From NCBI GenBank assembly GCA_017445025.1, contig JAFSVJ010000009.1:1536-65535 (forward strand): a DNA stretch of 64,000 nt. The letters run 5' to 3'. The notes beneath the pieces were generated by a model that was given only the letters and a program-made list of their open reading frames with translations, made no database searches and was not told the origin of the DNA. Shown here one piece after another: positions 14,116 through 34,845 of this stretch. The DNA comes from Abditibacteriota bacterium. GTDB taxonomy: Bacteria; Armatimonadota; UBA5829. Each line of letters starts with the position of its first letter. Within the stretch, counting starts at the first letter, position 1. Position numbers and translations under genes: made by a program.

Positions 14116-14118
14116 AAG

Positions 14119-14140
14119 AAGCTCGGGAAACCGAGCTTTT
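14119..14140 (+). terminator. Rho-independent terminator aagctcgg-gaaa-ccgagctt+tttt; left copy of a 22-bp perfect direct repeat (candidate attL-side island boundary)
   Basis: An 8-bp stem with a GNRA loop, 3 bp after the porin stop. The identical 22-mer recurs at 34824-34845. Confidence 0.6.
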
Positions 14141-14220
14141 ACTATTGATTTAGAGTCTTTTTCTGTATTTAAACTTACCCTTAATTATTTGTCATAAACT
14201 ACAAATAAACTACAACTTTT

Positions 14221-15248
14221 TTATATAAATTGCAATTTATCTATTGCTGCAATTAAATCCATTTTTGGTAATCGAGTATATACATCAAGGGTTACATCTT
14301 TATACTTATGACCCATGATCTTTTTAATTGCTATAATATCTACTTTATTTTTAAGCATGTAATATGAAAAACTTTGCCTACAATTTTTAGGAACATGATC
14401 AAAAGAATGTTTTGAAAAGATTTGACGCAATTTTGATTCTGAGAAATTAAATACACCTTGTTTAACTTCTTCTGTTATTTTAAGAATATCTTTATGTATT
14501 GGAACTACTCTGTTAATTCCGGCTTCTGTTTTACTACCGGTTATTATATAACGTTCGTTTAAGTGAAATTCACTTATTTTTGATATTTCATTAAATCTTA
14601 TTCCCGTATATAAATAAAAAAGTTGTAATTTACAGGACAATTCATCTTTGTTTTTCCAAAGTTCTTGTATCTCACCAACTGTATAATTATTCTCCTCTTT
14701 TTTCGCTTGTGAAGATGAAGAAATTGCAATTGACGTTGCGTAATTTTTGGTAGCCCAGTCTTTATTTACAGCATATTCTGATAATTTCACCAACATTGTT
14801 CTAACTTTGCTTTGCATGGGGTATCCATATTTTAAAGTCTTAAATAAATTTACATAATCTTGGTGTTTAATATCACTCATAAGTTTGTTATGTAAAACAG
14901 CACAATCTTTAAAAGCTATTTTAGTATCCTTCTTCCAACTTTTGCTTTTATTTCCAAAAATGGTTATATAGTTAAACCATTGTTTGAATGCAACCTCAAA
15001 TGTAATTAGGACTAGATCATCAGGGTGTTCCTTTTTACAATTTTTTAAGGCTTCTTTTGCTTCTTCTTCTGTTTGGTAGTTTCCTAATGTTTTTTGAATT
15101 CTTTTAATTGTGCCATCTTCAGAAATATTATATGTTTGCGGTAATACTACTCTCCATTGCTTTTTTAATTCCGGACGGTTTATCTTGAAAATAGATTCTT
15201 CGCCTTTTTGTCTTCTTTTATATTCTATTTTTTTCTAAGTCTACCCAT
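14221..15248 (-). pseudogene. Tyrosine recombinase / phage-type integrase, interrupted by a frameshift in an A7 homopolymer (T7 on the plus strand at 15228-15234)
   Basis: The C-terminal catalytic region has TGIRFNEI (Arg) and IMGHKYKDVTLDVYTRL (His, Arg, Tyr). The open frame continues 107 codons upstream of the annotated Met with no ATG. The ATG at 15248 (MGRLRKK) is restored to frame by a +1 A in the A7 tract. Confidence 0.75.
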
Positions 15249-15701: not shown

Positions 15702-15998
15702 TTAAGTCGTTATCATTAAGTTTGCCTTCATAGAGTTATAATCAGTAATCTCTGAAATATCAAATTCCATATAAGAATCAAGTTTGATAAAGGTTTCTTT
15801 TGGAAATGGTGGATAATACTGTTCTATAAGATAGTTACTTTCAAAATATAATCTGCTTTCCTTTCCTCTTAATGAAGAAGCATTTAATACTCCTATTTTT
15901 GAACCTGTCACTTTAACAATTAGATAAAATCTGTTATATTCCGGAAAAGTCCCATCCTTAAACCTAAGTTTTGTGAATATTGCCTGTCCTACTTCCAT
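15702..15998 (-). CDS. Small hypothetical protein; candidate toxin partner of the upstream Panacea-domain protein
   Basis: A 98-aa ORF whose start overlaps the stop of the Panacea gene by 1 nt (ATGA). No motif recognised. Confidence 0.45.
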   Translation of the reverse strand: MEVGQAIFTKLRFKDGTFPEYNRFYLIVKVTGSKIGVLNASSLRGKESRLYFESNYLIEQYYPPFPKETFIKLDSYMEFDISEITDYNSMKANLMITT

Positions 15999-16642
15999 TA
16001 GTATGCTTGCACTTCTCCGTCATCAAGGAATAAAGACATTGCCACTTCATCTGTAACTAAAGAAAGATCATATAGCTTGTCATAATCTTTGTCTGTTAAT
16101 GTGATTTCTTTTGGGTTGTAGTAAAATCTCACACCGTTAATGACTTCATAAACCTCTTCTTTATCCCTATTTTCGTAAGTAGAAATAACCTTATAGGTTT
16201 TATCTATTTCCTTTTTTATTAATTCTGTAGGGATAACAGCATCACCGGGATTGGTTTTGGATGATTTTTTATATGTGTCATTCCAAAAATTAAAGGTGTG
16301 ATTAAGTTCGGAAAGTTCCTTTGCAGAATAATGACTGAAAATTTCATTGGTAAGTTCTAATACTTTATCGGTTTCTTTAGAGAAGTTTGGCTTAAAGGCA
16401 AGACTGTCTTTCAAAAAAGTATTAAAATTATCTTTAAATTTGAGACGAACATCTCCTATTACACAACCTTGTTTAAAGGCAAATATATTGTCTTTGTATA
16501 AAGGAGAGTTGTATAGTGATAGGTTTATCAGATATGCAAACAGAAGCAGTTTCTGCAATTTCATATTACTGTCAAAGTTAGACTGTTGAATATCAAGATT
16601 GGTTTTAACAAAGAATTTAGCTAAATCGTAAACATTTTCCAT
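15998..16642 (-). CDS. Panacea-domain (DUF4065, SocA/GepA-like) putative antitoxin
   Basis: ...MKLQKLLLFAYLINLSL...AFKQGCVIGDV matches the KLQKLLYfa...AWeyGPV core of DUF4065. Start set at MENVYD (16642), which has a strong AAGGAGG RBS, rather than the ORF-track start at 16666. Confidence 0.55.
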   Translation of the reverse strand: MENVYDLAKFFVKTNLDIQQSNFDSNMKLQKLLLFAYLINLSLYNSPLYKDNIFAFKQGCVIGDVRLKFKDNFNTFLKDSLAFKPNFSKETDKVLELTNEIFSHYSAKELSELNHTFNFWNDTYKKSSKTNPGDAVIPTELIKKEIDKTYKVISTYENRDKEEVYEVINGVRFYYNPKEITLTDKDYDKLYDLSLVTDEVAMSLFLDDGEVQAY

Positions 16643-17012
16643 AATAAACCTCCTTTTACTAACCATACTATTATACTATATTTTATTTATTTTGTCAAAT
16701 ATTAAACCAGCAATAATATATACTTATATTTTGAACCCAAAGTTCCCAAAGTAAGAATTAATATGTGTTTTTTCTGATTTTTGAGATTTAGGGTCAAACT
16801 GTCAAAATTAATGAACAATTTTTAAAAACTATAAAAAAACTGTTTTTTTAGTGGATTTTTGTAGTAAAAATATAGTATAATATATTGAGAGATATTTAAA
16901 ACAGCTTTCTTTTACGCCTATTATTATTAATTTGAAAAAACACTTAAAATATTATATAATAATTATGTGTATCTAATTATAAATAATAGTATAATTTAGT
17001 TATAAAGTAAAA

Positions 17013-18887
17013 ATGACAGACGAGAAGCCTTTTGAGTTAAAATTGAATAATGACAAATATGTGACAATAGATGAACTAACAAAAATAGATTTAGCCGGAA
17101 CTAAGCCTATTGATTTTGTTATAGGTAATAATCCACCGGTTTCTGTTAAGTTTTGGCGTTTATTATTAAGTAAAACCGTAGATGAACTCATAAAACTATA
17201 TCCACATAAAGATATATTGCACTTTTCCTCTGCCAATACAAGAATGCTATTATTTTCTTATAACAAAGAGGATTTACACAGAGGTGAACTATTATCTAAT
17301 GGTTTGTTTTTGGAAACCTGTTTTAGCTCTAATAAAGTAGTTGAATTAATCAAAGCTTTTTTTGATTTCTTCGGGTATAAAGGTGAGTATTTATTAAATT
17401 ACAGACGGGAGAGAACTCCTTCTATACAAAGAAGAAATCAAAAATTAAATATTGTTGAAACAAGTAATGAACAAAATTTTAATAAAGAAAATATAAATAA
17501 TTCATTTGAATTATATGATAAAGAATTAATAGATATAGCTAATGTTATATTAGAAGAAAAGTTTTCTAATGCTTTTAGATTAAATTCAAATATTGCTAAA
17601 AATAAGTTTAGGAGGGCTTATTTTGATTTATTGGGTAAAGAGTTAATAGAAGAGTTTAATATAGATGATTTAATTAAGACTTTAGGAGTTGTTTTTGAAG
17701 ACAAAGTATATATAATATCATCAAAAGCAAAAGATATTTTAAGTGAATTAATTAATGAAGCAATAATAAATAATAATAATATAATTTATTATAAAGATTT
17801 TTATGATAAGAATAGTTCAATTCTTTCTTCTTTAAACATTTTCAATTATGAAATATTAAAAAAAGTAATTCAGTCATATTTTGAAAATCTATTTATTGAT
17901 ACTCATTTTTTTAAACCATTGGAAGATAATAATTTAGTTAATGATTTAGTTGAATGCTTTAAAGGGAAAGACATGTTGTCTATATATGAAATAAAGAATA
18001 AACTATTATATACTGATATTAATCACATTAAAAGAATGTTACAATTAGATAAGAATTTTGTATTTGCCAAAAGATATAATTATATGTATGTAGAAAACTT
18101 ATCTATTTCTACAGATGATGTTGAAGAAAGTAAGAAAATAATAGAAAAATCCTTTACTGACAAAGGAACAGCCAGTTTATCCGATATAGTTGTTAATAAT
18201 AGTATAAATTTAAACTATAATGCAACTGAAAATGCTTTACGAGAGGCAATATTCATTAAATGTTTATCTAATATGTGTGACAGAAACAGATCCATATTAT
18301 ATCCCAAGGGAAAAGATAAAATATCCGGTGCTTTATTAATGGAGGAATATTGTTTAAGTCATAATAAAGTCACTGTAGAAGAATTAGAAGAATATGAAAA
18401 CAAAATGACTGGTCATACTTATTTTTGGTTGATAAAAGCTATGAATAATATGATAAGAGTGGATCAAAAAACATTTGTTAGTTTTGATTTAATTGAATTC
18501 GATATTGAAAAAACTAATGAAGCTATTGGAAGATTTATATATGATAAGATAGTTCCCTTTAAGAAAATAGATAGTTTTATTGGGTTTCCTGAAGTGGAAG
18601 GATATATTTGGAATAAATATTTATTAGCTTCTTTTTGTTTACATGTAAGTAATAAATATAATTCTTGGCATAAATTTGCTAAGAATGATATTTTAGGTGG
18701 AATATATCCTAATACAATGGAGATAGATAGTTATAATGACTTTTTATATTATGTGGTATTAGAAAACAATATACCATTAACTAATGAATCTATTAATCTT
18801 TTTTTAAAAGATAATGGTTATATAAAGAAAAACATAAATACAGATTGGATAATATCTAAAATTAACGAATATAAGGAAGTAAATTAG
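17013..18887 (+). CDS. Uncharacterised 624-aa protein, first gene of the defence operon; translationally coupled to the downstream BrxP-like gene
   Basis: No recognisable motif and very N/K/I-rich. Its TAG stop overlaps the GTG start of the next gene (tagtg at 18885-18889). Confidence 0.5.
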   Translation: MTDEKPFELKLNNDKYVTIDELTKIDLAGTKPIDFVIGNNPPVSVKFWRLLLSKTVDELIKLYPHKDILHFSSANTRMLLFSYNKEDLHRGELLSNGLFLETCFSSNKVVELIKAFFDFFGYKGEYLLNYRRERTPSIQRRNQKLNIVETSNEQNFNKENINNSFELYDKELIDIANVILEEKFSNAFRLNSNIAKNKFRRAYFDLLGKELIEEFNIDDLIKTLGVVFEDKVYIISSKAKDILSELINEAIINNNNIIYYKDFYDKNSSILSSLNIFNYEILKKVIQSYFENLFIDTHFFKPLEDNNLVNDLVECFKGKDMLSIYEIKNKLLYTDINHIKRMLQLDKNFVFAKRYNYMYVENLSISTDDVEESKKIIEKSFTDKGTASLSDIVVNNSINLNYNATENALREAIFIKCLSNMCDRNRSILYPKGKDKISGALLMEEYCLSHNKVTVEELEEYENKMTGHTYFWLIKAMNNMIRVDQKTFVSFDLIEFDIEKTNEAIGRFIYDKIVPFKKIDSFIGFPEVEGYIWNKYLLASFCLHVSNKYNSWHKFAKNDILGGIYPNTMEIDSYNDFLYYVVLENNIPLTNESINLFLKDNGYIKKNINTDWIISKINEYKEVN

Positions 18888-21238
18888 TGGCACGGTATAT
18901 ATATGATTCTGAAACAGGTGGTATTCTGCTTCAGTATTTTGATGGAATAACATCTAACGAACCAAGACCTGTATATGCAACAGAGTTAAATATATTGGGA
19001 GTTGATGAATATTGGGATTATGAAAATCAAGATGATATCCCTTATATGTGGGCTGAGGCTAATCACTATTATTATAAAGGTATAAAAATATTTGACACTA
19101 AAGGTGGTAACCTTTATGAAAAGCCCAAAATTGAAATAATATATCAAAAAACTGAAAAAGAGAAGTTAACAGAAAATCCTGTTTTACCTTTTCATACTAA
19201 ATTAGATAAAATAAAAATCAAAGAAATGTGTGAGAAGAATAAGGAAGAATTAAATATATTAGAGCAATTAACTTGTAAAAAAATATATAATGAGTATTGC
19301 AAATATAAAGATAAACTTGATTGTTTTCATGTAGCTTTTAGTGGTGGTAAAGATAGTATTGTATTATTGGAACTTGTTAAAAAAGCTCTTCCTAAAAGCA
19401 GTTTTATTGTTTTATTTGGTGATACTCAAATGGAATTTCCGGATACTTATAAGATTATAGATATAGTAGAAGAGGGATGTAAAAAAGAGGGCATTGAATT
19501 TTATAGGGCCAAATCTCATCTAAAACCGGAAGAGAGTTGGAGATTATTTGGGCCTCCTTCAAGAGCATTAAGGTGGTGTTGTTCAGTTCATAAATCTGCT
19601 CCTCAGACTTTAAAATTAAGAGAAATATTAGGTAAAAAAGATTATATTGGAATGGATTTTGTAGGTGTTAGAGCTTTTGAAAGTTCAACCAGGGCTACCT
19701 ATGAAGAAGAGAATTTTGGAAAAAAACAAAAAGGCCAATATTCTTTTAATGCAATACTAAATTGGACTTCCGCCGATGTGTGGTTGTATATATATTCTAA
19801 TAATTTACCTATAAATGAAGCTTATAAAAAAGGCAATTCTCGTGCAGGATGTTTGTTTTGCCCAATGGGTGGTGGAAAAGGAGATTTTTTTCAGTATTAT
19901 TCATATTCTAAAGAAATGAATCCGTTAATATCAATAGTAAAAGACTTGTATATAAATGATACTGATAGTCAAGAAAAAATAAATTCTTATGTTTTTTCTG
20001 GTGGATGGAATGCTAGAAAAAATGGTAGGGATTTAACTATTTCTAAAAATAATTATAAAGAAGAAAAAATAGGACAAGACTTAATTATAACAATAAAGAA
20101 TCCTAGATCTGATTGGAGAGAATGGATTAAAATCTTAAGCAATTATAACTTAAATTATGATATTGTTAGTAATGATAATACTTTAAAAATAATTATTAAT
20201 GAAAATTCATTAGATAAAAATTTAGTTAAATATAGTAATAATTCTAAAGATTTATCTTTAAAAAGAGTATTTAAACAAGTATTTAAGAAAGCATCAAGTT
20301 GTGTGGGTTGTAAAGTATGTGAGGCTAATTGTCGTTATGGGCATATATCATTTAATGATGGTCTTAAAATTAATGGTTGTATACAATGTTATGAATGTCA
20401 AGATTTAGTAAATGGTTGTTTACTGTATAATTCTTTAATAATACCAACAGGAGATAAAAGAAAATTGAGTATTAATTCTTTTGCTAATCACGCACCTAAG
20501 CCAGAATGGATAAAAGATTTTGTCCAAAATTATAAAAATAATGTTGATTTTTGGTCTAATAATACATTAGGTCCTCAACAAATACCTAGATTTAAAAAGT
20601 TTGTTAAAAGTTGTGGCTTTTTAGATAATTCAAATAAACCAACAAAATTATTAAACTTATTATCAAATAAAAGATATAATTCAATTGATATTTGGGGTAT
20701 TGCTTATGCGAATTTTGCTTATAATACGCAAAGTCGATGGTATATAGAAAATATGGAAATAGATACCATTTACACTCGTGATAAAATCTCAGATATGCTT
20801 GTTGAAGAAGGATTAAGTAGAGATGATTCTACTTCAGTTATTAATGCATTTAAACGTTTTTGTGATATACCTTTTGGTGTTTATCTTAAATTTGGCAATG
20901 TTAAATTAAGTAATAAGACTATAAAGACATTGTCAAGAACAAAGACTTCTTTAGATAATAATAATAAGTTAGTTCTTTTATATTCTTTATATAAATATGC
21001 TGAAGAATGTGGTGATTATTATCAATTTAGCTTATCTACTTTAATGGATATGACTATAAAGTCTAAGGGTATAAGTCCTGTGAAAATATTTGGTTTTAGT
21101 CGTGATGAAATGGAAGTTATGCTTAGTGGATTGTCAAGCAAATACACAGATTTTATTGATTACACGCCTACTCATGGTTTAGAAAAGATAACCTTAATGG
21201 ATTATCATACTTCACAGGACGTTTTAGATTTATTTTAG
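18887..21238 (+). CDS. brxP: PAPS-reductase-domain protein, BrxP-like (DndC-like ATP pyrophosphatase fold plus Cys-rich C-terminal region)
   Basis: FHVAFSGGKDSIVLLEL is the PP-loop SGGKDS motif of the PAPS reductase/DndC family. Downstream cysteine clusters (CLFCPMGGGK; CVGCKVCEANC...CIQCYEC) follow. GTG start. Confidence 0.65.
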   Translation: MARYIYDSETGGILLQYFDGITSNEPRPVYATELNILGVDEYWDYENQDDIPYMWAEANHYYYKGIKIFDTKGGNLYEKPKIEIIYQKTEKEKLTENPVLPFHTKLDKIKIKEMCEKNKEELNILEQLTCKKIYNEYCKYKDKLDCFHVAFSGGKDSIVLLELVKKALPKSSFIVLFGDTQMEFPDTYKIIDIVEEGCKKEGIEFYRAKSHLKPEESWRLFGPPSRALRWCCSVHKSAPQTLKLREILGKKDYIGMDFVGVRAFESSTRATYEEENFGKKQKGQYSFNAILNWTSADVWLYIYSNNLPINEAYKKGNSRAGCLFCPMGGGKGDFFQYYSYSKEMNPLISIVKDLYINDTDSQEKINSYVFSGGWNARKNGRDLTISKNNYKEEKIGQDLIITIKNPRSDWREWIKILSNYNLNYDIVSNDNTLKIIINENSLDKNLVKYSNNSKDLSLKRVFKQVFKKASSCVGCKVCEANCRYGHISFNDGLKINGCIQCYECQDLVNGCLLYNSLIIPTGDKRKLSINSFANHAPKPEWIKDFVQNYKNNVDFWSNNTLGPQQIPRFKKFVKSCGFLDNSNKPTKLLNLLSNKRYNSIDIWGIAYANFAYNTQSRWYIENMEIDTIYTRDKISDMLVEEGLSRDDSTSVINAFKRFCDIPFGVYLKFGNVKLSNKTIKTLSRTKTSLDNNNKLVLLYSLYKYAEECGDYYQFSLSTLMDMTIKSKGISPVKIFGFSRDEMEVMLSGLSSKYTDFIDYTPTHGLEKITLMDYHTSQDVLDLF

Positions 21239-21249
21239 GAGTTTTCATA

Positions 21250-24200
21250 ATGAAGAAATATATAGATTACTTTGATATTGATCCTTCTTATTATCCGGAA
21301 ATTAATCCCGATTCAATTAAAGACCAAAAGTGGTATAGAACAACTCCACATAAAACTTTTATTGATGTTTTGAAACAAGTTGAAAGAACATTAAGTAGAG
21401 AAACAACAGAAGCTTGCAAAGGAATATGGATAGAAGGTTCATATGGAACAGGAAAGTCAAGAGTTATATGGACTATAGATAATATTTTGACTTGTTCTAA
21501 CGAGGAATTGAGTAAATACTTTAATAGCTATGCTCTTTTACAACAAGAAAAAGATTTACTTAATAAGATAAATGCTCTTAAATCCGGAAAAATACTAACT
21601 GTTTATAAATATAAATCCGGTGATATAGATAATATTAATAAGCTTATTATCAAAATATATGAAAGTGTTACCAAAGCATTAAAGAATAATAAATTTGATT
21701 ATATTGGAAAAGATACAATACGTGGAAAAATAGTTTCTTTTTTAGAAGAAGATGAAGAGAATAGGAACATCTTTGCTCAATTAATAAATAAACCAAAATA
21801 TAAGTCGTTAGGTAGTCTAAACGGAAAATCTGTTAGTGAGATTATCAAAATATTAAAAAATACTAATCAAAATGCTGAGGATTTAGTTAATGATATCATA
21901 AAGATATCAGATGATAATATTAATCTTTTTTCTTTAGATATGGATGATTTGAAATCATGGATATCAGAAGTGTTATCAGAGAATAAAGATAAAGGATTAA
22001 AAGCTATAGTATTATTATGGGATGAGTTTTCAGCATTTTTCAAGAAAAATAAAGATTCTCTTGATGTTTTTCAATCATTAGCTGAATTATCAAATAATGA
22101 TCCTTTCTATTTGATTATAGCAACTCATGAAAGTTCTTCTATAGTATCTCCGGAAGAAAAAGCTTCTTTTAAAGTTATTTCTGACAGATTTAATCATTTT
22201 AATATTAAAATGCCAAACTCAACTGCATTTGAATTGATTGCAGATGCAATGGATATAAAAAAAACTTCTAAATCTGAATATGAAATACTAACATCTGAAT
22301 TAAATGACAATATGAAAAAATCAAGGGAAGCTGTATGTAGGTTAAATGACAAGGATATAATTAGTGAAGAAACTATGAAAAGATTATGTCCTATTCATCC
22401 TATGACGGCTCTTTTATTAAAGCATATATCTACTTTTTTTGCGTCAAACCAAAGAAGTATGTTTAATTTTATTAAAGATAATGATAGTGATAAACTAAAA
22501 GCTTTTCAGTGGTTTATTAATAATTATTCTCCTGAAGATGGTCAACTTTTAGCCGTAGATTTTTTATGGGATTTCTTTTATAATTATGGAACAACTGATC
22601 ATAGTTCTTTTTCAGGCAGAGCAAATTTAGATATAATTATAGCTAATATTCTTGACACCTATCCAAGGGAAGAAAAAAAACTTAATAATGAGCAAAAAAG
22701 AGTCTTAAAAGCTGTTTTAATGATGCTTGCTATAAACAAAAGATTAAATAATAGTGTTGAATTATTAATTCCTAATGATAAAAATATTAAAATGGTATTT
22801 GAAGGAGATGATAATTTAGAAGATAAAGCTGTAAATATTGTTAAAAACTTTTTTGTAGATAATTTTAAAATACTTTATATTGATAAAGATGAAAATAATC
22901 AAGATGTTTATAAAGTTAATATGCCTGGTGAAGAACAAGAAATATTAAAGATAAAAGAAAGGTTACTTCAAGAAGTTAAAACAATTAATATATTAGAATC
23001 CGGTGAAAATTCTATACTTTCATCTATTTCTTTTCCTAATAAGATTAACATAAGATATAAATTTTATTATCTAACAGTTGATAATTTTACAAAAAAACTT
23101 AATAAAATTGCCGAAGAAGAAACTAAACTTTTTAAAGCTGTTTTATGTTTTGCCAGAAATAAAAATGAACAATTAATTATCAATAATAAAATAAAAGAAG
23201 CAATAAAAGATGATATATTTAAAGATATTGTTTTTGTAGATATGTCTAATAATTTATTAAGTGATGATAAATTTAACAATTTTATAGATTACAGTGCAAG
23301 AGAAGAATACTGGCGAGGAAAAGATGATAGTTTAGCTGATGAAAAGAAAAGAAACAAAGAAATGATTCTTGATGATTGGGCTAATGATATTAATAATGGA
23401 GAGTATAAAGTATCTAATGTTAAAAATGCATATGCTAAAGATTGTAATTCATTTGATAGTTTAAAAGAAGCATTAGTAGAAATAGTATTAAAGTATTATC
23501 CTTTGGTATTTGATAATTATAAAATTGCTGAACCTTTATTTAATTCTTCTGACTTTAATATTGGAATTTTGTGTGGGTTAGGAATATCTAATAAAAAAGG
23601 AGATAAATATTACAGCGTTTATCAAGAAAAAGATATTAGAATGATCTTAGGAAAACTTGTTGATGATGATAATTATTGGATTACAGATAAAAGCCATAAT
23701 ATATCTCAAATAAAGATAAAATTAGATGAATATATTCAAAATGAATTTGATAGAAATAATAAGGTTTCTATAGGTGATATATTTGATTTCTTAATGGGTC
23801 TTGGGTTTATATATAATAATTTATATGCATATTTGACCGGATTTTTATTAAAGGGTTATTCCTGCAGACCCTATCGTTATAGTATAGGTTTAGAAGGAGA
23901 AAATGGTGGTGAAATAGATCCTAATAAACTTGCTGAATTTGTTAGTGAATATATGAAATTTAAACAAACTGGTAAAAATGAACCAAAAATTAAATATATT
24001 CAAATAATGACAGATAATCAACGAGAATTTTTAAGTTTTATTAATTCTTCCTATGGTGTTGATAAAGATTTGTCTGTTGAACAAGCAGTAATTCACTTAA
24101 GAAATAAACTTTTGAGTATAGGTTATCCGTTATGGGTTTATAAAACAATTGATGAAAATGGATTAAGTGACTACATTGATAAGTTAAGTAATATAGTTAA

Positions 24201-25461
24201 TACAGATCGAAGTCAAAACGTTGCTGATTTAGTTGAACAATTTGGGAAACAATTAGTGAATAATACTAATTTAGCAATTAATTTAAAGGCATTACTTACA
24301 TTAGAGAAAGGTAAAGAAGCTATGGATACCTTTTTAGATACTTTTGAAGCAGGTTCTATAAAAACATTAGCTAAAGAAATTAGAGTAATTGATTATATTA
24401 AGGAAGTTCAAGAAACTATCAGTAAAGGTATAAAAGCATGGTTATGGAACGAAGAAGATGGTAAAAAAGAGTTAAGAAAATTAATTCTTGATTATAAGAT
24501 TATTGCTAAAAGTAATAATATTATTGATAGGACAAATTGTTTTTCTGATTGTATTGCTAAATGGAAAGAATTCTTTGAACATAATATTAAATTACCTTAT
24601 TCAATTGTTATGGTAGAATATAATGAATTATCTGATTTTTTTGATTGTATAAAAGAATCAATATCTTCTGCCATGAATATTATTAGTTATGAGAGTAGGC
24701 AAAAGTTTTTTGATGCAATATCTAATAATGAAAATACAATAATTAATATTAATGAAAGATGTAAAGAACTATTAAAAAATAAGTTTATAACATTTGTTAC
24801 TGATTTCTCTGATGATGATATAGAAAATTTATATATTAGTCTTTCTAATGATTCTTTTATAAAATCAGAATCAGAATTTTATCAAATTATTAAAAGAGAA
24901 GCTAATCTTATACAAAATCGTTTATTGAGAAACAAAATAGTATCCAAATGGAAAGAATTAACTAATACAGCATCTTCTAAAGAATGGTGTAATAAATACA
25001 GGTGTCCTATATTAATTATGATTGATGATGCTGAATTCAATGATGCTAAAGACCTATTTACTGTTTTGGATGAAAGTTTTAAATTTAATGATAGTATGTT
25101 ACAGAGAGTATTAGAGTTTATTGAAAAAAAACCTAAATTTATTTTTAAAATAAATAATAAAACAGAAATTGATAAAGTTTTTAGTAATAAAATGATTCGT
25201 GAATATCAAGTTATAATAGATGATGTAGAAGATCTAAAGAATAAACTATCTTCAATAGACTCAAATTATTATAATTGGTATGGCAATCAAGTTATAAATG
25301 ATGCTATTAGAGAGTTTGCTCAAGATAAATATCTTAATGGAGGCTTTGAAGAAATCAAAAATGATATTCAGGGAAAAACAGCAGATGAAGTTAAAAGCCT
25401 TTTATTAGATTTAATTTCAAATAATGTTGATGCAGGAATATTAGTAATAAAGAAAAGGTAG
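21250..25461 (+). CDS. brxC: Giant P-loop ATPase, BrxC/PglY-like
   Basis: 1403 aa with an N-terminal Walker A (GIWIEGSYGTGKSRV) near residue 60 and a long alpha-helical remainder. Size and architecture are typical of BrxC. RBS aggag. Confidence 0.6.
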   Translation: MKKYIDYFDIDPSYYPEINPDSIKDQKWYRTTPHKTFIDVLKQVERTLSRETTEACKGIWIEGSYGTGKSRVIWTIDNILTCSNEELSKYFNSYALLQQEKDLLNKINALKSGKILTVYKYKSGDIDNINKLIIKIYESVTKALKNNKFDYIGKDTIRGKIVSFLEEDEENRNIFAQLINKPKYKSLGSLNGKSVSEIIKILKNTNQNAEDLVNDIIKISDDNINLFSLDMDDLKSWISEVLSENKDKGLKAIVLLWDEFSAFFKKNKDSLDVFQSLAELSNNDPFYLIIATHESSSIVSPEEKASFKVISDRFNHFNIKMPNSTAFELIADAMDIKKTSKSEYEILTSELNDNMKKSREAVCRLNDKDIISEETMKRLCPIHPMTALLLKHISTFFASNQRSMFNFIKDNDSDKLKAFQWFINNYSPEDGQLLAVDFLWDFFYNYGTTDHSSFSGRANLDIIIANILDTYPREEKKLNNEQKRVLKAVLMMLAINKRLNNSVELLIPNDKNIKMVFEGDDNLEDKAVNIVKNFFVDNFKILYIDKDENNQDVYKVNMPGEEQEILKIKERLLQEVKTINILESGENSILSSISFPNKINIRYKFYYLTVDNFTKKLNKIAEEETKLFKAVLCFARNKNEQLIINNKIKEAIKDDIFKDIVFVDMSNNLLSDDKFNNFIDYSAREEYWRGKDDSLADEKKRNKEMILDDWANDINNGEYKVSNVKNAYAKDCNSFDSLKEALVEIVLKYYPLVFDNYKIAEPLFNSSDFNIGILCGLGISNKKGDKYYSVYQEKDIRMILGKLVDDDNYWITDKSHNISQIKIKLDEYIQNEFDRNNKVSIGDIFDFLMGLGFIYNNLYAYLTGFLLKGYSCRPYRYSIGLEGENGGEIDPNKLAEFVSEYMKFKQTGKNEPKIKYIQIMTDNQREFLSFINSSYGVDKDLSVEQAVIHLRNKLLSIGYPLWVYKTIDENGLSDYIDKLSNIVNTDRSQNVADLVEQFGKQLVNNTNLAINLKALLTLEKGKEAMDTFLDTFEAGSIKTLAKEIRVIDYIKEVQETISKGIKAWLWNEEDGKKELRKLILDYKIIAKSNNIIDRTNCFSDCIAKWKEFFEHNIKLPYSIVMVEYNELSDFFDCIKESISSAMNIISYESRQKFFDAISNNENTIININERCKELLKNKFITFVTDFSDDDIENLYISLSNDSFIKSESEFYQIIKREANLIQNRLLRNKIVSKWKELTNTASSKEWCNKYRCPILIMIDDAEFNDAKDLFTVLDESFKFNDSMLQRVLEFIEKKPKFIFKINNKTEIDKVFSNKMIREYQVIIDDVEDLKNKLSSIDSNYYNWYGNQVINDAIREFAQDKYLNGGFEEIKNDIQGKTADEVKSLLLDLISNNVDAGILVIKKR

Positions 25462-25465
25462 TATT

Positions 25466-27619
25466 ATGGAAGATTTTGAATCTGTTAAAATAAATATCGA
25501 TAATTATTTTTCTAGTAAAGAACCCTTCCCTTTCTTCCTTTCAATTAATGGGACTGAAGAATATAAAGAAGTATTAAACCAATATCCCGGTATACAAAAA
25601 ATATATATAAGTGATTATTGTAATGAAGATTCTTTTATTGATTCTGATAAATTAATTAATTATCTTTCTCAAAATAATAGTAAATGCTTATTATTGGGGT
25701 TGGGTGATTATATTAGTCTGTCTTATGATACTAATATTTTTGAAAGAATCAGTAATTTATGCATTAGTGGAAAACTATTAGTTTTGTGTAAAGGAATAAA
25801 AAACTTTATTAATAGTCAATCATCTATTGATGATAAATTTGATAACAGAAGGTATTATATAGTGAATTCCTCTTGTCATAATAATACTATTATTAAAGTT
25901 AAATTTGATATTGAGTATAATAATGCAATTTATGGTTTTAAACAATTACTTAAGAAAATGGAAAATTGTGACGATAGTAAATTTATAGTTAGAACTGAAT
26001 TGCATATAAAAAATGATTATGAGATAACTTCATATTATGATGCATTAAAGTATGAAAAAAAGATATCCAATATTACTGAAGATGTATTATCACAAGACCT
26101 ATGGAAAGAATTTTATAAGGATGAAAGACTTACCGATTATAAAATTAGCCATTGGAGGTTTTACTTAAAAGTATTATTGAACGGAACAAAGGATGAATAT
26201 TTATGTGAAGTTATTAAAAAATCCCCAAATTATGATACATATAAGCAGCAGATTTATAATTGTATTTTAGATATTGATTGTTCTGATAAAAGGTTTGATT
26301 TATTATATGAAAAAAGAAAAATATTGTTAAAAGACTTAAACAAGAATGCTCCAGAATTAGATGAATATTTGTTGAGAACGAAGGATAAGAGTAAAGATAG
26401 GGTTTATTATTTAACAGATAATACAGATAAAGAGAAATATGAAATTATTGAGGAAATATGTAAATTTAAAGAAATACCTAAAAATTTAATAAATATTTAT
26501 CCTGATTTAAATAAGTATCTTCAAAATTATAAATTTGAAACTACAGATAGTGAAATATATACAGAATATTTCAATCAATATAAAAAACAAAAACTTTTGA
26601 ATTATATTGAGCCAGAGTTTTTAAATAAAGTAATAGACTTAGCTAATAAAAGAATATACAATACACTTGAAACAAATTATTCTGTTATAGAAAAGTATAA
26701 AAATGGGAATAATTTTCTATATTGGATAGACGCTTTAGGAGTAGAATTTCTTGGTTATATTCAAAAAAAAGCTTATGATAAAGGATTAAATATAAATTTT
26801 ATAATTGCAAGGTGTATTTTACCTTCTCTGACTAGTTTAAATTCTTTTTTTTACAATGAATGGAAGGGAAAGAAAACTGCAAACAAAAATTTAGACAAAA
26901 ACAAGCATGAAGGTGATAATAGATTTAATTATTTAAATAAAAAGACTCCTATTCATTTAGTTGAAGAATTAAAAATAATATCAGAAGCGTTAGATTTTGC
27001 AAAAAGTGAATTAACACAGCATAATTTCGAAAAAGTAATTATTGCTTCAGATCATGGCTCTAGTCGATTGGCAGTAATTAATGAACAAGAGAATAAATGG
27101 GTAATGAAAACAAAAGGAGAACATTCTGGAAGATGTTGCCCTGTTGACGAATTATCTGAAAAACCTGAAGTTGCAACTAACGAAAATAATTATTATGTGT
27201 TGGCTAATTATGATAGATTTAAAGGTGGACGAAAAGCAAGTGTTGAAGTTCATGGTGGAGCTACACTTGAAGAGGTTTTGGTTCCTATTATTGAGATATC
27301 ATTATTGTCCGGTAATATAGATTTTCCGTTGGATTATGAACCGAAAATAATAAAGTGTGGACCAGAACATAAACCTGAAATAACATTATTTGTCCCCGTT
27401 AAGTCTAATAATGTAATACTTAGAATAAACAGTTATAATTACAATGCAACTCCAATTGATGATTCACACTATAAGGTTGTTTTAGATGATATAGTTAATA
27501 CCGGTGAGTATACAGCTGATGTTATTGTTGATAATAATATTAAAGGTTCAATAACATTTAAAACACAAAATATAATTGCTAGTTCAAATGATAGTGATTC
27601 TTTTTTTGAAGATTTTTAA
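25466..27619 (+). CDS. pglZ: PglZ-like alkaline-phosphatase-superfamily protein
   Basis: 717 aa. VIIASDHGSS and EVHGGATLEEVLVPII resemble the metal-ligand DHG and HGG motifs of the alkaline phosphatase/PglZ clan. Position directly after the BrxC-like gene fits BREX order. Confidence 0.5.
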   Translation: MEDFESVKINIDNYFSSKEPFPFFLSINGTEEYKEVLNQYPGIQKIYISDYCNEDSFIDSDKLINYLSQNNSKCLLLGLGDYISLSYDTNIFERISNLCISGKLLVLCKGIKNFINSQSSIDDKFDNRRYYIVNSSCHNNTIIKVKFDIEYNNAIYGFKQLLKKMENCDDSKFIVRTELHIKNDYEITSYYDALKYEKKISNITEDVLSQDLWKEFYKDERLTDYKISHWRFYLKVLLNGTKDEYLCEVIKKSPNYDTYKQQIYNCILDIDCSDKRFDLLYEKRKILLKDLNKNAPELDEYLLRTKDKSKDRVYYLTDNTDKEKYEIIEEICKFKEIPKNLINIYPDLNKYLQNYKFETTDSEIYTEYFNQYKKQKLLNYIEPEFLNKVIDLANKRIYNTLETNYSVIEKYKNGNNFLYWIDALGVEFLGYIQKKAYDKGLNINFIIARCILPSLTSLNSFFYNEWKGKKTANKNLDKNKHEGDNRFNYLNKKTPIHLVEELKIISEALDFAKSELTQHNFEKVIIASDHGSSRLAVINEQENKWVMKTKGEHSGRCCPVDELSEKPEVATNENNYYVLANYDRFKGGRKASVEVHGGATLEEVLVPIIEISLLSGNIDFPLDYEPKIIKCGPEHKPEITLFVPVKSNNVILRINSYNYNATPIDDSHYKVVLDDIVNTGEYTADVIVDNNIKGSITFKTQNIIASSNDSDSFFEDF

Positions 27620-27629
27620 GGATTAAAGT

Positions 27630-29093
27630 ATGATAGATAAGTTAAGAAAATATTTTGATGAAATGGTAGTATATAAAGATTTAAAGAATAGTAATTTCTT
27701 TTCTGCTTTGAGTTTACCTTCATTTACTCGTGATTGGCTATTAAAGCGATTTGAAAACAAAGAAGGTCAATTTGATATTGATAATTTAGCTGCATTTGTT
27801 AAGAAGAATATCCCAAAAAAAAATGATTGGACTGCAATTGAAAGTAGAATAGTTAAAGATTATGAAAGAGTAAAAATATTAGCTAAAATTTCTATTGATA
27901 TAGATATTAAAACAGGAGAAGTTTCTTTTTCTTTACCTGAATTTGGTTTGTCTTCTAAAAATACTATTATTGAAGATGATGTATATGATGAATTTAAAGA
28001 AGATTTAGTTAGCGGACATGAAGTTTGGGGTATGCTTGAATTAGGATATAGACAACCAAATGATACTGTTAAGCCTAAAATTCCTGGAAAAATAAAATTA
28101 ATTAAATTTAAAAACTTTTGTCCCTACAATATAAATGTAGATTATTATAAAAATGTTAGGTCTAAATTTACTATTGATGAATGGATAAATGTTCTTTTAG
28201 GAGCTATTGATTATAATGCAGATGGTTACAAAGATAATGAAGAAAAACTATCTATGCTTACAAGACTCTTACCATTCTGTGAAAAAAGATTAAATCTTAT
28301 AGAATTAGCTCCTAAAGGAACAGGTAAATCATATGTCTATGGTAGAATAAGTAGATTTGGTTGGCTTTCCAGTGGTGGTGTTATGAGCAGAGCTAAAATG
28401 TTCTATGACATTTCAAAAAGAGCAGAAGGTTTAGTTAGTGGAAATGATTTCATTACTCTTGATGAAGTGCAAACAATTTCTTTCACAGATATAGATGAAA
28501 TGAGAGCCGCATTAAAAGGTTATTTAGAGCAAGGTGTTTTTACTGTAGGTAATTATGAAGGATCAGCATCTTCGGGTGTCATTTTATGTGGTAATATATC
28601 CAAGAAAATAATGGATCAAGATGGAACAACTGATATGTTTAAAGAACTTCCAGATGTTTTCCACGAATCTGCTTTAATAGAACGTTTTCACGGGATAATT
28701 AGAGGTTGGAATATACCAAGAATGAATGATGATTTAAAAATATGTGGTTGGGCATTAAATTCTGAATACTTTTGTTCTATATTACACGAATTAAGAGAAG
28801 ATACAACATATCGAGTTGTTGTAGATAAGTTAATAGAGGTTCCTGAAGGGGCAGATACAAGAGATACTGAAGCTATTAAAAGAATTGTAACTGCTTACTT
28901 AAAACTTTTATTTCCGAATGTTAGACAGCCCGAAGATATTTCTCCTAGAGAATTTAAACAGTATTGTTTAAGACGTGCTAGAAATATGAGAGCCTTGATT
29001 AAATCTCAATTAGGAATTATTGATGAAGAATATAGAGGAAAAGATATTCCTAATTTAGTTGTTAATCCTCAATACTTAAATGATGATTTATAA
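27630..29093 (+). CDS. brxL: AAA-type ATPase, BrxL-like (Lon-related ATPase region; no protease Ser-Lys motif seen)
   Basis: 487 aa. Walker A LELAPKGTGKSYVY and Walker B FITLDEVQ. Position after the PglZ-like gene matches type 1 and type 4 BREX order. Confidence 0.45.
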   Translation: MIDKLRKYFDEMVVYKDLKNSNFFSALSLPSFTRDWLLKRFENKEGQFDIDNLAAFVKKNIPKKNDWTAIESRIVKDYERVKILAKISIDIDIKTGEVSFSLPEFGLSSKNTIIEDDVYDEFKEDLVSGHEVWGMLELGYRQPNDTVKPKIPGKIKLIKFKNFCPYNINVDYYKNVRSKFTIDEWINVLLGAIDYNADGYKDNEEKLSMLTRLLPFCEKRLNLIELAPKGTGKSYVYGRISRFGWLSSGGVMSRAKMFYDISKRAEGLVSGNDFITLDEVQTISFTDIDEMRAALKGYLEQGVFTVGNYEGSASSGVILCGNISKKIMDQDGTTDMFKELPDVFHESALIERFHGIIRGWNIPRMNDDLKICGWALNSEYFCSILHELREDTTYRVVVDKLIEVPEGADTRDTEAIKRIVTAYLKLLFPNVRQPEDISPREFKQYCLRRARNMRALIKSQLGIIDEEYRGKDIPNLVVNPQYLNDDL

Positions 29094-29106
29094 ATGGTAA
29101 TTAATA

Positions 29107-29307
29107 ATGAAAAAAGTTTACAATTGTTGTGCTTGTGGAAAAAGAAATTTAGAAAAAGATGAAATAGCGGTTTGTAAGAAAATGTTAGGTAGGAAAATAG
29201 AAAAGTTTTTCTGTTATGACTGTTTAGCAAATTATTTGGATTGTTCGGTTCAAGATATTTTAGATAAAATTGAAGAATTTAAAGCTCAAGGATGTAAACT
29301 GTTTTAA
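29107..29307 (+). CDS. Small zinc-ribbon protein
   Basis: 66 aa with CCACGK...C...CYDC Cys pairs. Lies between the BrxL-like and OLD-like genes in the same operon. Confidence 0.45.
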   Translation: MKKVYNCCACGKRNLEKDEIAVCKKMLGRKIEKFFCYDCLANYLDCSVQDILDKIEEFKAQGCKLF

Positions 29308-29322
29308 ATAACAACTAATAAT

Positions 29323-30945
29323 ATGATAGAAAAGATAAGAATTATTAATTTTAAAAAATTTAGAGACATTACTATAAATTTAAATGAAAATATTAACATT
29401 ATTGTTGGAAATAATGAAGAAGGTAAATCTACTATTTTGGAAGCTTTAAATTTAGCTCTTACAGGATTTTATCGAGGAAAGCCAATTAATAATGAATTAT
29501 CACAGTATTTGTTTAATAATGATGTTGTTATTGAATATCTTAAGTCATTACAAACAGAAAAAATAACAGATCTGCCATGTATTAAGATAGAAATATATTT
29601 TTCTACTGGAACAGCCCCTATTTTTGAAGGAAATAAAAATATAGATAATGAAGATAATGAAGGATTTACTTTTCATATAGGTTTTAATGAAGATTACAGA
29701 GAAGAATATGATTTTTATATTAGAAATAACCAAATAGACAATTTACCTATTGAATATTATGAAGTTTGGTGGGAAACTTTTGCTCGTGACAAAATCACTA
29801 CAAAAAAACTTCCTATTAAATCTTTTATGATTGATTCTTCAAATTATAAATATACAAATAGTTCCGATATTTATATATCAAGAATAGTTAATAACATTTT
29901 AGATAAAAAGGATATTCTATCTATTGCTCAATCACATAGACGTTTAAAATATAAATTCAGTGAAGAAGATTCCATAAAGAATATAAATTCTAAAATATCC
30001 AAAGATTTATTCATAAATGATGATATAATTAACTTAGGTGTAGAAGTAGATACTAAGAACGCTTGGCAAAATAGTTTGGTTGTTCAAGTTAATGATATTC
30101 CTTTTGAAAATATAGGAAAAGGAACGCAATGTATATTTAAGACAAAAATGTCATTACTAAAAAACAAAGATAATCAAAATTCTGTAATTTTAATTGAAGA
30201 GCCTGAAAATCATTTATCATATTCTAAATTAAATGAATTTATAAAAATTATTAAAGATATTAACATTGGCAAACAAATCATAATGACAACTCATAGTAGT
30301 TTTGTAGCCAATAAATTAGGATTAAACAATTTAATATTAATAAATGACAAAAATGTATTAAGAATAAGTAACGTTAAATCATTTGATTTCTTTAAGAAAA
30401 TTCCAGGATATGATACATTAAGATTTTTACTATCAAAGAGAGTAATTTTAGTAGAAGGGCCATCAGATGAATTAGTCGTTCAAAAAGCTTATATGATGCA
30501 TAATAATGGTAGAATACCTATTATGGATGGAATAGATGTTATTTCCGTAGGAACTGCTTTTTTAAGATATTTAGAATTAGCTATCAGACTAAATATTAAA
30601 GTGAGTGTTATGATTGATAATGACGGAAATATTAAAGCAATAGAAGAAAAATATAGTGATTATAAAGATAATAAGAATATAACTATATGCTATGATGAAG
30701 AAGTTAATGATAAAAAAGAATCATTAGGTGAAAGGTTTAATTATAATACATTAGAGCCTAATTTGTTGAAGGTTAATAGTATAGAAGTTTTTAATAAAAT
30801 ATTAAATATGTCCTTTATTACAGAAAAAGACTTATTACAATATATGAAGAATAATAAAACTGATGTTGCTTTAAAAATATTTGAAACAAAAGAAAACATT
30901 AATTTTCCTAATTATGTATTAAAGGCTATTAATAATGAAGAGTAA
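29323..30945 (+). CDS. OLD-family ATP-dependent nuclease (N-terminal ABC-type ATPase plus C-terminal Toprim), GajA-like
   Basis: Walker A IIVGNNEEGKSTILEAL. Walker B-like VILIEEPENHL. C-terminal Toprim ILVEGPSDELVVQ. Confidence 0.65.
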   Translation: MIEKIRIINFKKFRDITINLNENINIIVGNNEEGKSTILEALNLALTGFYRGKPINNELSQYLFNNDVVIEYLKSLQTEKITDLPCIKIEIYFSTGTAPIFEGNKNIDNEDNEGFTFHIGFNEDYREEYDFYIRNNQIDNLPIEYYEVWWETFARDKITTKKLPIKSFMIDSSNYKYTNSSDIYISRIVNNILDKKDILSIAQSHRRLKYKFSEEDSIKNINSKISKDLFINDDIINLGVEVDTKNAWQNSLVVQVNDIPFENIGKGTQCIFKTKMSLLKNKDNQNSVILIEEPENHLSYSKLNEFIKIIKDINIGKQIIMTTHSSFVANKLGLNNLILINDKNVLRISNVKSFDFFKKIPGYDTLRFLLSKRVILVEGPSDELVVQKAYMMHNNGRIPIMDGIDVISVGTAFLRYLELAIRLNIKVSVMIDNDGNIKAIEEKYSDYKDNKNITICYDEEVNDKKESLGERFNYNTLEPNLLKVNSIEVFNKILNMSFITEKDLLQYMKNNKTDVALKIFETKENINFPNYVLKAINNEE

Positions 30946-32032
30946 GCTAATAATGGCATGTGCCGGTTCCGGAAAAACTACTTATTTGATAGAACGAGCT
31001 TTAAAAATAAAGGACAAAAGCATATTAATTACTACATATACTAATTCTAATGAACAAGAGATAAAGAATAAATTTATAGATAGAATAGGTTATATCCCAA
31101 AAAATATAACTATCCAAACTTGGTTTTCATTCTTATTACAGCATTGGGTTAGACCTTATCAAAGTGTAATATATGATTGTGACATCAAAGGAATAGATAT
31201 TTCAGATAAAAAATCTACTAAATATGTAACAGAAAACAATGCTAAAGAATATTATTTTAATAGTAAAAATGAAATATATCGAGATAATCTCTCTAAATTT
31301 GCTTTTAAAGTAAATGAAAAAACTGAAGGAAAACTTATAGCCAGATTAGAAAAAATATATCAATATATTTTTATTGATGAAATTCAAGATTTGGCAGGAT
31401 ATGATTTAGATTTAATAAATGAAATAGTTAATTCTAGTATTTGGTTAATAATGGTTGGTGATAGAAGACAAACTGTTTATATTACACATTATGAAAAACG
31501 CAATGAAAAATATAGAGGAAAAATTGATGAATATGTGATAGATAAACTAACAAATAAAGTTTACATGGATGTAAAATCCTTATCTAATAGTTATAGATGT
31601 AATCAAAAAATATGCGATTTTGCTAATGATGTTTTTAAAGATTTGCAACCTATGAAATCGTCAAACAAACAAAAAACAGAACATGATGGTGTTTTTTTAG
31701 TTAGACCTTGTGATATAAATGATTATTTGATTAAGTTTAGTCCTGTTCAGCTACGATATAGCAAATCTATAAAGGTAAATATAAATTATAAAGCTTATAA
31801 TTTTGGTGAATCAAAAGGTTTAACTTTTGATAGAGTATTAATATATCTAACTAAAAATCAAACTGATTGGTTAAAAAATCATACTATAAAGTTAAAAGAG
31901 CCGGAAAAATTATATGTTGCTATTACAAGAGCTAAATATAGTGTTGCAATTGTATTTGATGAATTAGATAAATATCAACCAAAACATACAGAAGTGTATC
32001 CTTATAAAAGAGATTTATTTACACTTGATTAG
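30935..32032 (+). CDS. Compact UvrD/PcrA-like SF1 helicase, GajB-like
   Basis: Motif I ACAGSGKTT, Ia TYTNSNEQEI, II FIDEIQD, III MVGDRRQT, V GESKGLTFDRV, VI VAITRAKYSV. Overlaps the OLD-like gene by 11 nt. Confidence 0.6.
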   Translation: MKSKLIMACAGSGKTTYLIERALKIKDKSILITTYTNSNEQEIKNKFIDRIGYIPKNITIQTWFSFLLQHWVRPYQSVIYDCDIKGIDISDKKSTKYVTENNAKEYYFNSKNEIYRDNLSKFAFKVNEKTEGKLIARLEKIYQYIFIDEIQDLAGYDLDLINEIVNSSIWLIMVGDRRQTVYITHYEKRNEKYRGKIDEYVIDKLTNKVYMDVKSLSNSYRCNQKICDFANDVFKDLQPMKSSNKQKTEHDGVFLVRPCDINDYLIKFSPVQLRYSKSIKVNINYKAYNFGESKGLTFDRVLIYLTKNQTDWLKNHTIKLKEPEKLYVAITRAKYSVAIVFDELDKYQPKHTEVYPYKRDLFTLD

Positions 32033-32192
32033 TCTTTTACTAATTATTAATTTATAAAAGTGTATTTTTAATTGAGTACATTATGGCAAAAACGAATGAA
32101 TAAATATGTATATTTTTAAACCTTTAAATTAAATGGGTTAAAGATTTTATTCCAAAATGTATAATAATAATATTAAATGGAGAAATTTTAAG

Positions 32193-34744: not shown

Positions 34745-34790
34745 AAAAACCAAGCAAAATTGCTTAATTTTACTTGGTTTTATTCGTAAT
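34745..34790 (+). terminator. Rho-independent terminator (A-tract, stem aaccaag...cttggtt, T-tract)
   Basis: A 7-bp stem enclosing an internal caaaattg palindrome, then ttttatt. Confidence 0.5.
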
Positions 34791-34823
34791 AAACTACAAA
34801 TAGAATACAAATTGTGTTTAAAA

Positions 34824-34845
34824 AAGCTCGGGAAACCGAGCTTTT
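34824..34845 (+). terminator. Second copy of the aagctcgggaaaccgagctttt hairpin terminator (candidate attR-side island boundary)
   Basis: A 22/22 identity with 14119-14140 in the same orientation. Confidence 0.6.

Follow-up and report, generated by a model that had tools for sequence, protein, structure and literature searches.

Type 4 bacteriophage exclusion (BREX) systems make phosphorothioate (PT) DNA, and brxP together with brxC from B. salyersiae is sufficient for the modification (PMC12914056, 2026). A survey of BREX that includes type 4, with BrxP loci in 457 taxa, lists OLD/Toprim modules as neighbours of BREX in 1,242 taxa (PMC12839542, 2026). BREX-4, Gabija and their co-location are already known, and a zinc (Zn)-ribbon gene was noted in 2026. 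BREX models still lack an account of how self is told from non-self and how phages are kept from replicating; in type 4 the demonstrated half is the modification, by BrxP plus BrxC. A 64,000-nucleotide (nt) stretch of contig JAFSVJ010000009.1 from an Abditibacteriota bacterium, called the window below, carries a type 4 BREX operon that opens with a gene of 624 amino acids (aa), here gene 1, and ends with a Gabija-like gene pair. Across a large clade, brxP has gene 1 as an obligatory neighbour. The favoured explanation, held at a probability of roughly 0.6, is that two defence systems share one island: a BREX-4 system with gene 1 as its DNA-binding recognition subunit, and an autonomous Gabija-like pair.

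A type 4 BREX operon with a conserved first gene

Eight co-oriented genes occupy positions 17013-32032 (Table 1), with successive gaps of -1, 11, 4, 10, 13, 15 and -11 nt and a GC content of 24-27% against 33-42% in the flanks. Judged by gene content, the locus is a bona fide type 4 BREX, in which brxP, brxC, pglZ and brxL are contiguous, co-oriented and in canonical order, separated by the gaps of 11, 4 and 10 nt. BrxP joins a PAPS-reductase PP-loop, a 4Fe-4S (ferredoxin-like) Cys cluster and a C-terminal DUF4007/BrxA-like region; it matches PF01507 (3.5e-31) and, over its full length, PADLOC model PDLC02510 (4e-227, residues 1-782), and its C-terminal third (residues 532-756) matches the second BrxP model, PDLC02511, which corresponds to the DUF4007 region. 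Its SGGKDS motif lies at residue 152 and its CxxCxxCxxxC motif at residue 472. BrxC has no match in Pfam or NCBIfam and is assigned from PADLOC models: PDLC02485 covers it end to end (4e-202), and SspC models reach 5e-21. Its Walker A motif GSYGTGKS lies at residue 63. PglZ passes NCBIfam NF033445 (BREX_PglZ_4) at 394 bits, the cut-off being 140, also matches DUF7864, DUF7863 and DUF7862, and carries DHG at residue 529 and HGG at residue 596. BrxL, at 395 bits against a cut-off of 329 for TIGR02688 (PF13337, 1e-109; PF20442, 1.7e-30), is a short form made up of the N-terminal domain and the ATPase, with the Lon protease domain absent. Profile scans found no methyltransferase domain in the eight operon proteins. 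PT synthesis and phage restriction by the window locus are predicted from this gene content.

The locus shares with the described type 4 systems the four defining genes in canonical order, their full-length profile matches, the lack of a PglX methyltransferase, the three-part build of BrxP and the presence of a small Zn-finger gene (PMC12914056; PMC12839542). It departs from them in having no cysteine desulfurase and in its conserved first gene, which is named in the available text of neither paper.

The gene 1 protein and NCBI entry IJS60_00955, from an Abditibacteriota metagenome-assembled genome, are identical, and the gene 1 family appears to be new. It has no match in Pfam, NCBIfam, PADLOC or PHROGs, nor among plasmids by tblastn, and the family profile has none among PDB sequences; PADLOC, DefenseFinder and PGAP leave both gene 1 and the Zn-ribbon gene unlabelled in BREX-4 loci. 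Word-indexed searches with gene 1 or with a four-sequence alignment returned the query alone, AT-rich low-complexity words swamping the candidates. An exhaustive search recovered 1,078 representatives of 50%-identity clusters at E<=1e-3, among them 888 at E<=1e-10. Family members range from about 380 to 1,582 aa and share the part corresponding to residues ~170-610 of gene 1, and their N-termini are variable.

Three differently selected sets of loci place this family beside brxP. Complete loci chosen by BrxP have a gene 1 homologue immediately upstream of brxP in three of three cases (E 1e-34, 2e-26 and 6e-20). Scanned with the family profile, metagenome contigs yielded 80 loci, and a same-strand brxP follows in all 78 that have downstream sequence. 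In a BrxL-centred survey of 18 loci in nine BrxL clusters, verified by tblastn and unbiased as to flanking genes, the homologue stands upstream of brxP in each of the 16 loci with room for it, which represent 9/9 lineages. The median distance from the gene 1 stop to the brxP start is 4 nt (range -1 to 34) in 79 loci, which fall into 41 groups when clustered at 90% identity and 16 when clustered at 50%, and gene 1 is probably translationally coupled to brxP across the clade; in the window the stop and the GTG start overlap as TAGTG, with a Shine-Dalgarno-like AAGGAAG 8 nt upstream. Gene 1 is also the fastest-evolving component of the system, at 27-36% identity to the window protein where BrxP of the same loci retains 48-59% and BrxL 74-77%.

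Two single loci depart from this layout. An archaeal BREX-4 locus on plasmid pNP174 of Methanosphaera sp. ISO3-F5 has no gene 1 and no Zn-ribbon gene. Its BrxC is shorter (1,186 aa), a pair of helix-turn-helix (HTH) and ImmA/IrrE genes precedes it, and a DUF262 gene follows. In another locus (L005, 7640-11943) the brxP frame continues into a tyrosine-integrase domain, giving an open reading frame (ORF) of 969 aa, and an IstB-like ATPase gene follows where brxC would be expected; a mobile element has apparently disrupted this BREX-4 locus.

In structural models, gene 1 consists of an alpha/beta head domain, a linker, and a body of about six predicted winged helices closed by a terminal helical bundle. 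Family members share this plan, a constant body of some six predicted tandem winged helices joined to an interchangeable N-terminal head, both made of modules of the nucleic-acid-binding type. Among 150 family representatives, 50 have the head type of the window protein, with one to five copies each, as do 43 of the 80 locus proteins. Longer relatives carry HARE-HTH, sigma-70 region 4, alpha-CTD, McrB-N, the PcrA Tudor domain or ankyrin repeats instead. The window head has tentatively been modelled as a SeqA-C/SLED-like fold, a lead at the level of fold, since identity to the SeqA C-terminal domain (residues ~50-181) and to the Scml2 SLED domain is 8-11% and a Foldseek search misses this resemblance. 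From its predicted architecture, gene 1 would be a non-enzymatic DNA-recognition or sensor subunit.

In members such as P0010, P0041, P0085 and L077, among others, the heads resemble modules of the transcription apparatus or its partners: the alpha-CTD, sometimes in two copies, sigma-70 region 4, the HARE-HTH domain of RNA polymerase delta, and the PcrA/UvrD Tudor domain. Such heads may simply be DNA binders reused by chance; alternatively, they may point to a connection with RNA polymerase.

Known proteins of BREX and related systems resemble gene 1 in part. BrxA, DUF4007 and SspB are likewise non-enzymatic HTH or winged-helix proteins encoded in or fused to modification machinery; they have three HTH modules where gene 1 has a predicted six or so winged helices and adds interchangeable heads, and a DUF4007-like region is already carried by BrxP of the window locus. 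Gene 1 as a paralogue of that region was considered and rejected, the best hhalign probability between the gene 1 and BrxP families being 0.8%. BrxR, a regulator with winged HTH, WYL and WCX domains, shares with gene 1 the 5' end of brx operons and the winged helix; gene 1 was rejected as a BrxR because it matches neither WYL nor WCX and because BrxR-like WYL-WCX genes coexist with gene 1 homologues, directly upstream of them, in two loci (L004 and L005). Nor is gene 1 the 'unknown Bs02795' of the B. salyersiae operon, a gene that the methods (HMPREF1532_02796) place downstream of brxL (PMC12914056).

The first-pass annotation of this block had been written from the letters and an ORF list. 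The ORF list and motif searches agree with its eight tightly packed, co-oriented genes and the motifs it cited, profile searches bear out the type 4 core in canonical order, and the BrxL score above is for TIGR02688, the family it had named for BrxL. Its proposal that gene 1 is a candidate BREX component is strongly supported by the conserved adjacency to brxP. The TAGTG overlap on which it based translational coupling is real; such coupling is nothing peculiar to the window, and spacing of about 4 nt is typical of the family. Its description of type 4 as the least characterised BREX subtype is outdated after the two 2026 papers.

Genes behind brxL

The 66-aa Zn-ribbon protein has four Cys (C7, C10, C36 and C39) and the C-terminal end ...KIEEFKAQGCKLF. 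It has no match in Pfam, NCBIfam, PADLOC or PHROGs, and a permissive Pfam scan gave noise only (DUF2197, E 2.4; NirdL-like HTH, E 0.17). Two BrxP-selected loci (L001 and L003) have a small homologous ORF directly after brxL, with the pattern CxxC...CxxC...[ED]ILDK[IV]EEFKxxGCxLF, and in L003 an Aminotran_5 cysteine desulfurase follows. In the BrxL-centred survey the Zn-ribbon gene stands directly after brxL in 17 of 18 loci and 8/9 lineages, the exception having an insertion sequence there; homologues in this position are 46-60% identical. Since these homologues directly follow brxL in relatives that have no Gabija, the Zn-ribbon gene is a BREX-4 accessory gene and not part of Gabija, corresponding to the 'small zinc-finger protein' recorded in type 4 (PMC12839542).

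A linked cysteine desulfurase is the proposed sixth component of type 4, present in 56% of surveyed taxa and so not strictly defining (PMC12839542). It follows the Zn-ribbon gene in 14 of 17 loci and 6/9 lineages of the BrxL-centred survey, one locus ending before the position. Two lineages (L102 and L104) keep the Zn-ribbon gene without the desulfurase, so the linkage of the former is the tighter one. A tblastn search with the L003 desulfurase found none anywhere in the 64-kb window; PT synthesis here would therefore need a housekeeping enzyme as sulfur source, which the literature shows to be possible.

The B. salyersiae study describes a dispensable unknown gene, called 'Bs02795' in its results, and its methods assign HMPREF1532_02795 to brxL and Bs02796 to the unknown gene (PMC12914056). 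By the methods numbering this gene lies downstream of brxL, the position held in the window by the Zn-ribbon gene.

The last two genes are, by their profile matches, a short, divergent Gabija-like subfamily that pairs a class-2 OLD nuclease with a minimal UvrD helicase. The GajA-like protein matches PADLOC PDLC00102 over its full length (4e-193), AAA_15 (1.6e-20) and OLD-like_TOPRIM (1.2e-11), and has Walker A and B and the Toprim E and DxD motifs in place, with GNNEEGKS at residue 29, ILIEEPENH at 289, and in the Toprim domain VEGPSDE at 378 and DND at 432. The GajB-like protein (PDLC00148, 1e-126; UvrD-helicase, 1.7e-15) is a minimal superfamily 1 (SF1) helicase with motifs I, II, III and VI; it contains AGSGKT at residue 11, FIDEIQD at 148, GDRRQ and VAITRAK. 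A phmmer search of PDB sequences at E<=10 returned PtuA, Rad50, OLD 6p74, AriA and PcrA and no GajA or GajB chain, so membership in Gabija is meant in the broad sense, by way of the PADLOC subfamily models.

With Gabija the pair shares an OLD ABC-ATPase-Toprim gene followed by an overlapping SF1 helicase gene, both with intact catalytic motifs. It differs in being short (540 and 365 aa) and in lying inside the operon of another system with no recognisable promoter of its own. GajA of B. cereus VD045 has about 578 aa and GajB about 494 aa. The gajB-like gene overlaps the gajA-like gene by 11 nt, and the latter starts 15 nt after the Zn-ribbon gene. Given this short junction and the lack of a terminator-like site up to 32607 (none on the plus strand from 18686 to 32607), co-transcription with the BREX operon is plausible; a functional dependence is unsupported.

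On plasmids, 1,730 records match the pair and 1,667 of them cover at least 80% of the query. In the two plasmid contexts inspected, pBM69 of Bacillus methanolicus and one from Rhizobium, relatives at 47-52% identity form a stand-alone overlapping pair with no BREX nearby. The idea that Gabija is a constant tail of BREX-4 was rejected, window-type gajA/gajB genes being present in 0/18 loci and 0/9 lineages of the BrxL-centred survey. Because the pair stands alone on plasmids and never follows brxL in these relatives, it is most likely an autonomous neighbour in the usual slot of the desulfurase.

One surveyed locus (L105, 13883-18933) has the full gene1-brxPCZL-Zn-ribbon-desulfurase arrangement and, after a 1.1-kb gap, a long-form OLD gene (574 aa) and UvrD gene (584 aa). 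This long-form pair is a separate unit adjoined by a serine recombinase (resolvase). It is a second, independent case of Gabija beside BREX-4, so the co-location is repeated, as separate units. Adjacency to Gabija is an ordinary defence-island feature, and the 3' end of the BREX-4 operon looks like a hotspot for defence-gene insertion.

Other genes occur downstream of the desulfurase in further loci. In L088 and L089 (12834-19180) they encode a 380-aa UvrD-like helicase and GIY-YIG, Mrr, HNH, methyltransferase and Fic proteins; in L096-L098 (12830-14592) they are a 175-aa ORF and the gene of a DndB-domain protein.

Competing explanations

Under the favoured explanation, the first of the two systems is a PT-type BREX of a clade known mainly from gut and anaerobe metagenomes. 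The usual layout of that clade is gene1-brxP-brxC-pglZ-brxL-Zn-ribbon-(cysteine desulfurase), of which the window copy has the first six genes and no desulfurase. The second is the Gabija-like pair, probably read through from the BREX promoter and working as an autonomous module. The body of gene 1 would dock on DNA, on the co-translated BrxP-BrxC machinery as a physical partner, or on both; its head would recognise a DNA state, a sequence or a phage factor. Gene 1 would then serve the discrimination or restriction arm and have no part in the sulfur chemistry, because brxP, mcrA and brxC together re-create the native pattern of PT when placed in a heterologous host (PMC12914056).

What makes gene 1 a candidate for the recognition or restriction half of BREX is its membership in a large family without existing models, its adjacency to brxP, its fast evolution and its swappable heads of DNA-reader type. 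A bolder proposal, and a tentative one, takes gene 1 as the seventh, near-obligatory component of the main bacterial PT-BREX clade, a modular 'reader' whose interchangeable heads, SeqA-like, McrB-N, HARE-HTH and others, would sense the modification state or origin of DNA and pass unmodified invader DNA to BrxC-PglZ-BrxL. If true, gene 1 would be the self/non-self sensor that BREX models lack.

Several points weigh against a recognition subunit next to an autonomous Gabija. Since the pNP174 locus has neither gene 1 nor the Zn-ribbon gene, neither is universal to type 4, and the two mark a large bacterial clade. The BrxL-selected sample contains close relatives only, their BrxL being 72-80% identical to that of the window. 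The available text and supplements of PMC12914056 and PMC12839542 name no gene-1-like component, and one may be drawn in the survey figures. DNA binding by gene 1 is suggested by its predicted fold, and winged helices also serve protein-protein contacts. That gene 1 is dispensable for PT would be an extrapolation from B. salyersiae, where a gene 1 homologue is not confirmed. Finally, a 15-nt junction without a terminator is also expected of a functionally integrated Gabija.

Two other roles for gene 1 compete with recognition. That it chiefly regulates transcription of the brx operon, as an oversized counterpart of BrxR in function, is unlikely, even though it is the first gene, has a winged-helix build and counts relatives with sigma-70 region 4 or alpha-CTD heads. 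In L004 and L005 that role is filled by the separate BrxR-like gene directly upstream. Proteins of 500-1,400 aa with tandem domains, repeated heads and a coupling to brxP of about 4 nt fit a stoichiometric subunit better than a repressor, and gene 1 lacks ligand-sensing domains, WYL included. Still less probable is a target-recognition (specificity) subunit that directs PT placement by BrxP-BrxC. The native dinucleotide proportions were obtained in B. thetaiotaomicron with brxP, mcrA and brxC alone (PMC12914056), BrxP has a BrxA-like DNA-binding region of its own, and the ankyrin-headed family members fit sequence recognition poorly. Such a subunit would nevertheless account for the variable, putatively DNA-binding heads, for the fastest evolution among the components and for translational coupling to the modifying enzyme, and the failure of a brxC swap between species to restore PT leaves the choice of motif unsettled (PMC12914056).

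The remaining alternative concerns the Gabija-like pair, which might form a functional hybrid with BREX-4 as a back-up or abortive effector, driven by the BREX promoter and triggered by BREX inhibition. The arrangement of the genes is compatible with this: no promoter-like or terminator-like site is evident in the 15 nt between the Zn-ribbon gene and gajA, GC is equally low in the BREX and Gabija parts, and L105 has a second, unrelated Gabija in the neighbourhood of its BREX-4. The survey, moreover, proposes a back-up effector layer for the OLD-ABC/Toprim modules that it reports beside BREX and related systems (PMC12839542). Such a hybrid is nonetheless improbable, since none of the 18 BrxL-centred relatives has the window-type pair, about 1,700 plasmids carry the short pair by itself, the L105 Gabija stands 1.1 kb away beside a resolvase, and defence systems routinely co-locate in islands without any coupling being implied. 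The hybrid BREX/Gabija reading had also been raised in the first-pass annotation and finds no comparative support in these counts. The three-gene Gabija-like tail proposed there keeps its OLD/UvrD pair and loses its Zn-ribbon gene to BREX-4. Co-location of both additions with BREX genes in relatives, which it had left to a survey of homologous loci, holds for gene 1 in every related bacterial locus that could be checked and for the window-type OLD/UvrD pair in none of the 18 BrxL-centred loci.

The island and its other genes

The block sits in a low-GC integrative island of about 20.6 kb (14185-34824) that carries both defence systems. Its ends are 45-nt direct repeats, 80% identical by repeat search and pairwise alignment, and a GC-rich terminator hairpin is duplicated at the two ends with 96% identity. 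The integrase remnant abuts the left repeat and matches Pfam Phage_integrase (3.7e-8, residues 163-204) and a PHROG integrase (5e-18). An Rfam scan of 12000-38000 returned tRNA-Ser only.

Table 1. Positions of the operon genes, gene 1 domains and island features in the 64,000-nt window
Feature	Position	Strand	Description
ORF outside left boundary	12838-14115		425 aa
Terminator hairpin, left copy	14117-14140		GC-rich
Left direct repeat	14185..14229		attL-like; GC drop begins here
Tyrosine integrase remnant	14221..14880	-	219 aa; C-terminal catalytic part only
SocA/Panacea-domain gene and overlapping ORF	15702-16666	-	222 aa and 98 aa
Candidate promoter for gene 1	16932..16960	+	sigma-70-like TTGAAA-17-TATAAT; best upstream match, consensus match only
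gene 1	17013-18887	+	624 aa
gene 1, predicted head	17055-17405	+	residues ~15-131
gene 1, predicted body	17520-18884	+	residues ~170-624
brxP	18887-21238	+	783 aa; GTG start overlapping gene 1 stop
brxC/pglY	21250-25461	+	1403 aa; ATPase, SspC-like
pglZ	25466-27619	+	717 aa; type-4 form
brxL	27630-29093	+	487 aa; short form
Zn-ribbon gene	29107-29307	+	66 aa
gajA-like gene	29323-30945	+	540 aa; short form
gajB-like gene	30935-32032	+	365 aa
Surface-protein gene	32157-34730		857 aa; seven Big_2 domains
Tandem repeats in surface-protein gene	33288-34316		243-nt repeats
Right direct repeat	34780..34824		attR-like
Terminator hairpin, right copy	34822-34845		GC-rich

Divergent from the BREX operon lies the SocA/Panacea-domain gene (PF13274, 1.4e-8; phrog_1281, 1e-32), overlapped by one base by a 98-aa ORF (phrog_13386, 1.3e-18); the two are probably a PanA-type toxin-antitoxin pair. 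Just outside the left boundary, the 425-aa ORF has no Pfam or PHROG match, and the hairpin that terminates it recurs as the duplicate at the right island end. Inside the island, downstream of Gabija, the surface-protein gene has an intermediate GC content, and its Big_2 array is encoded by the tandem repeats.

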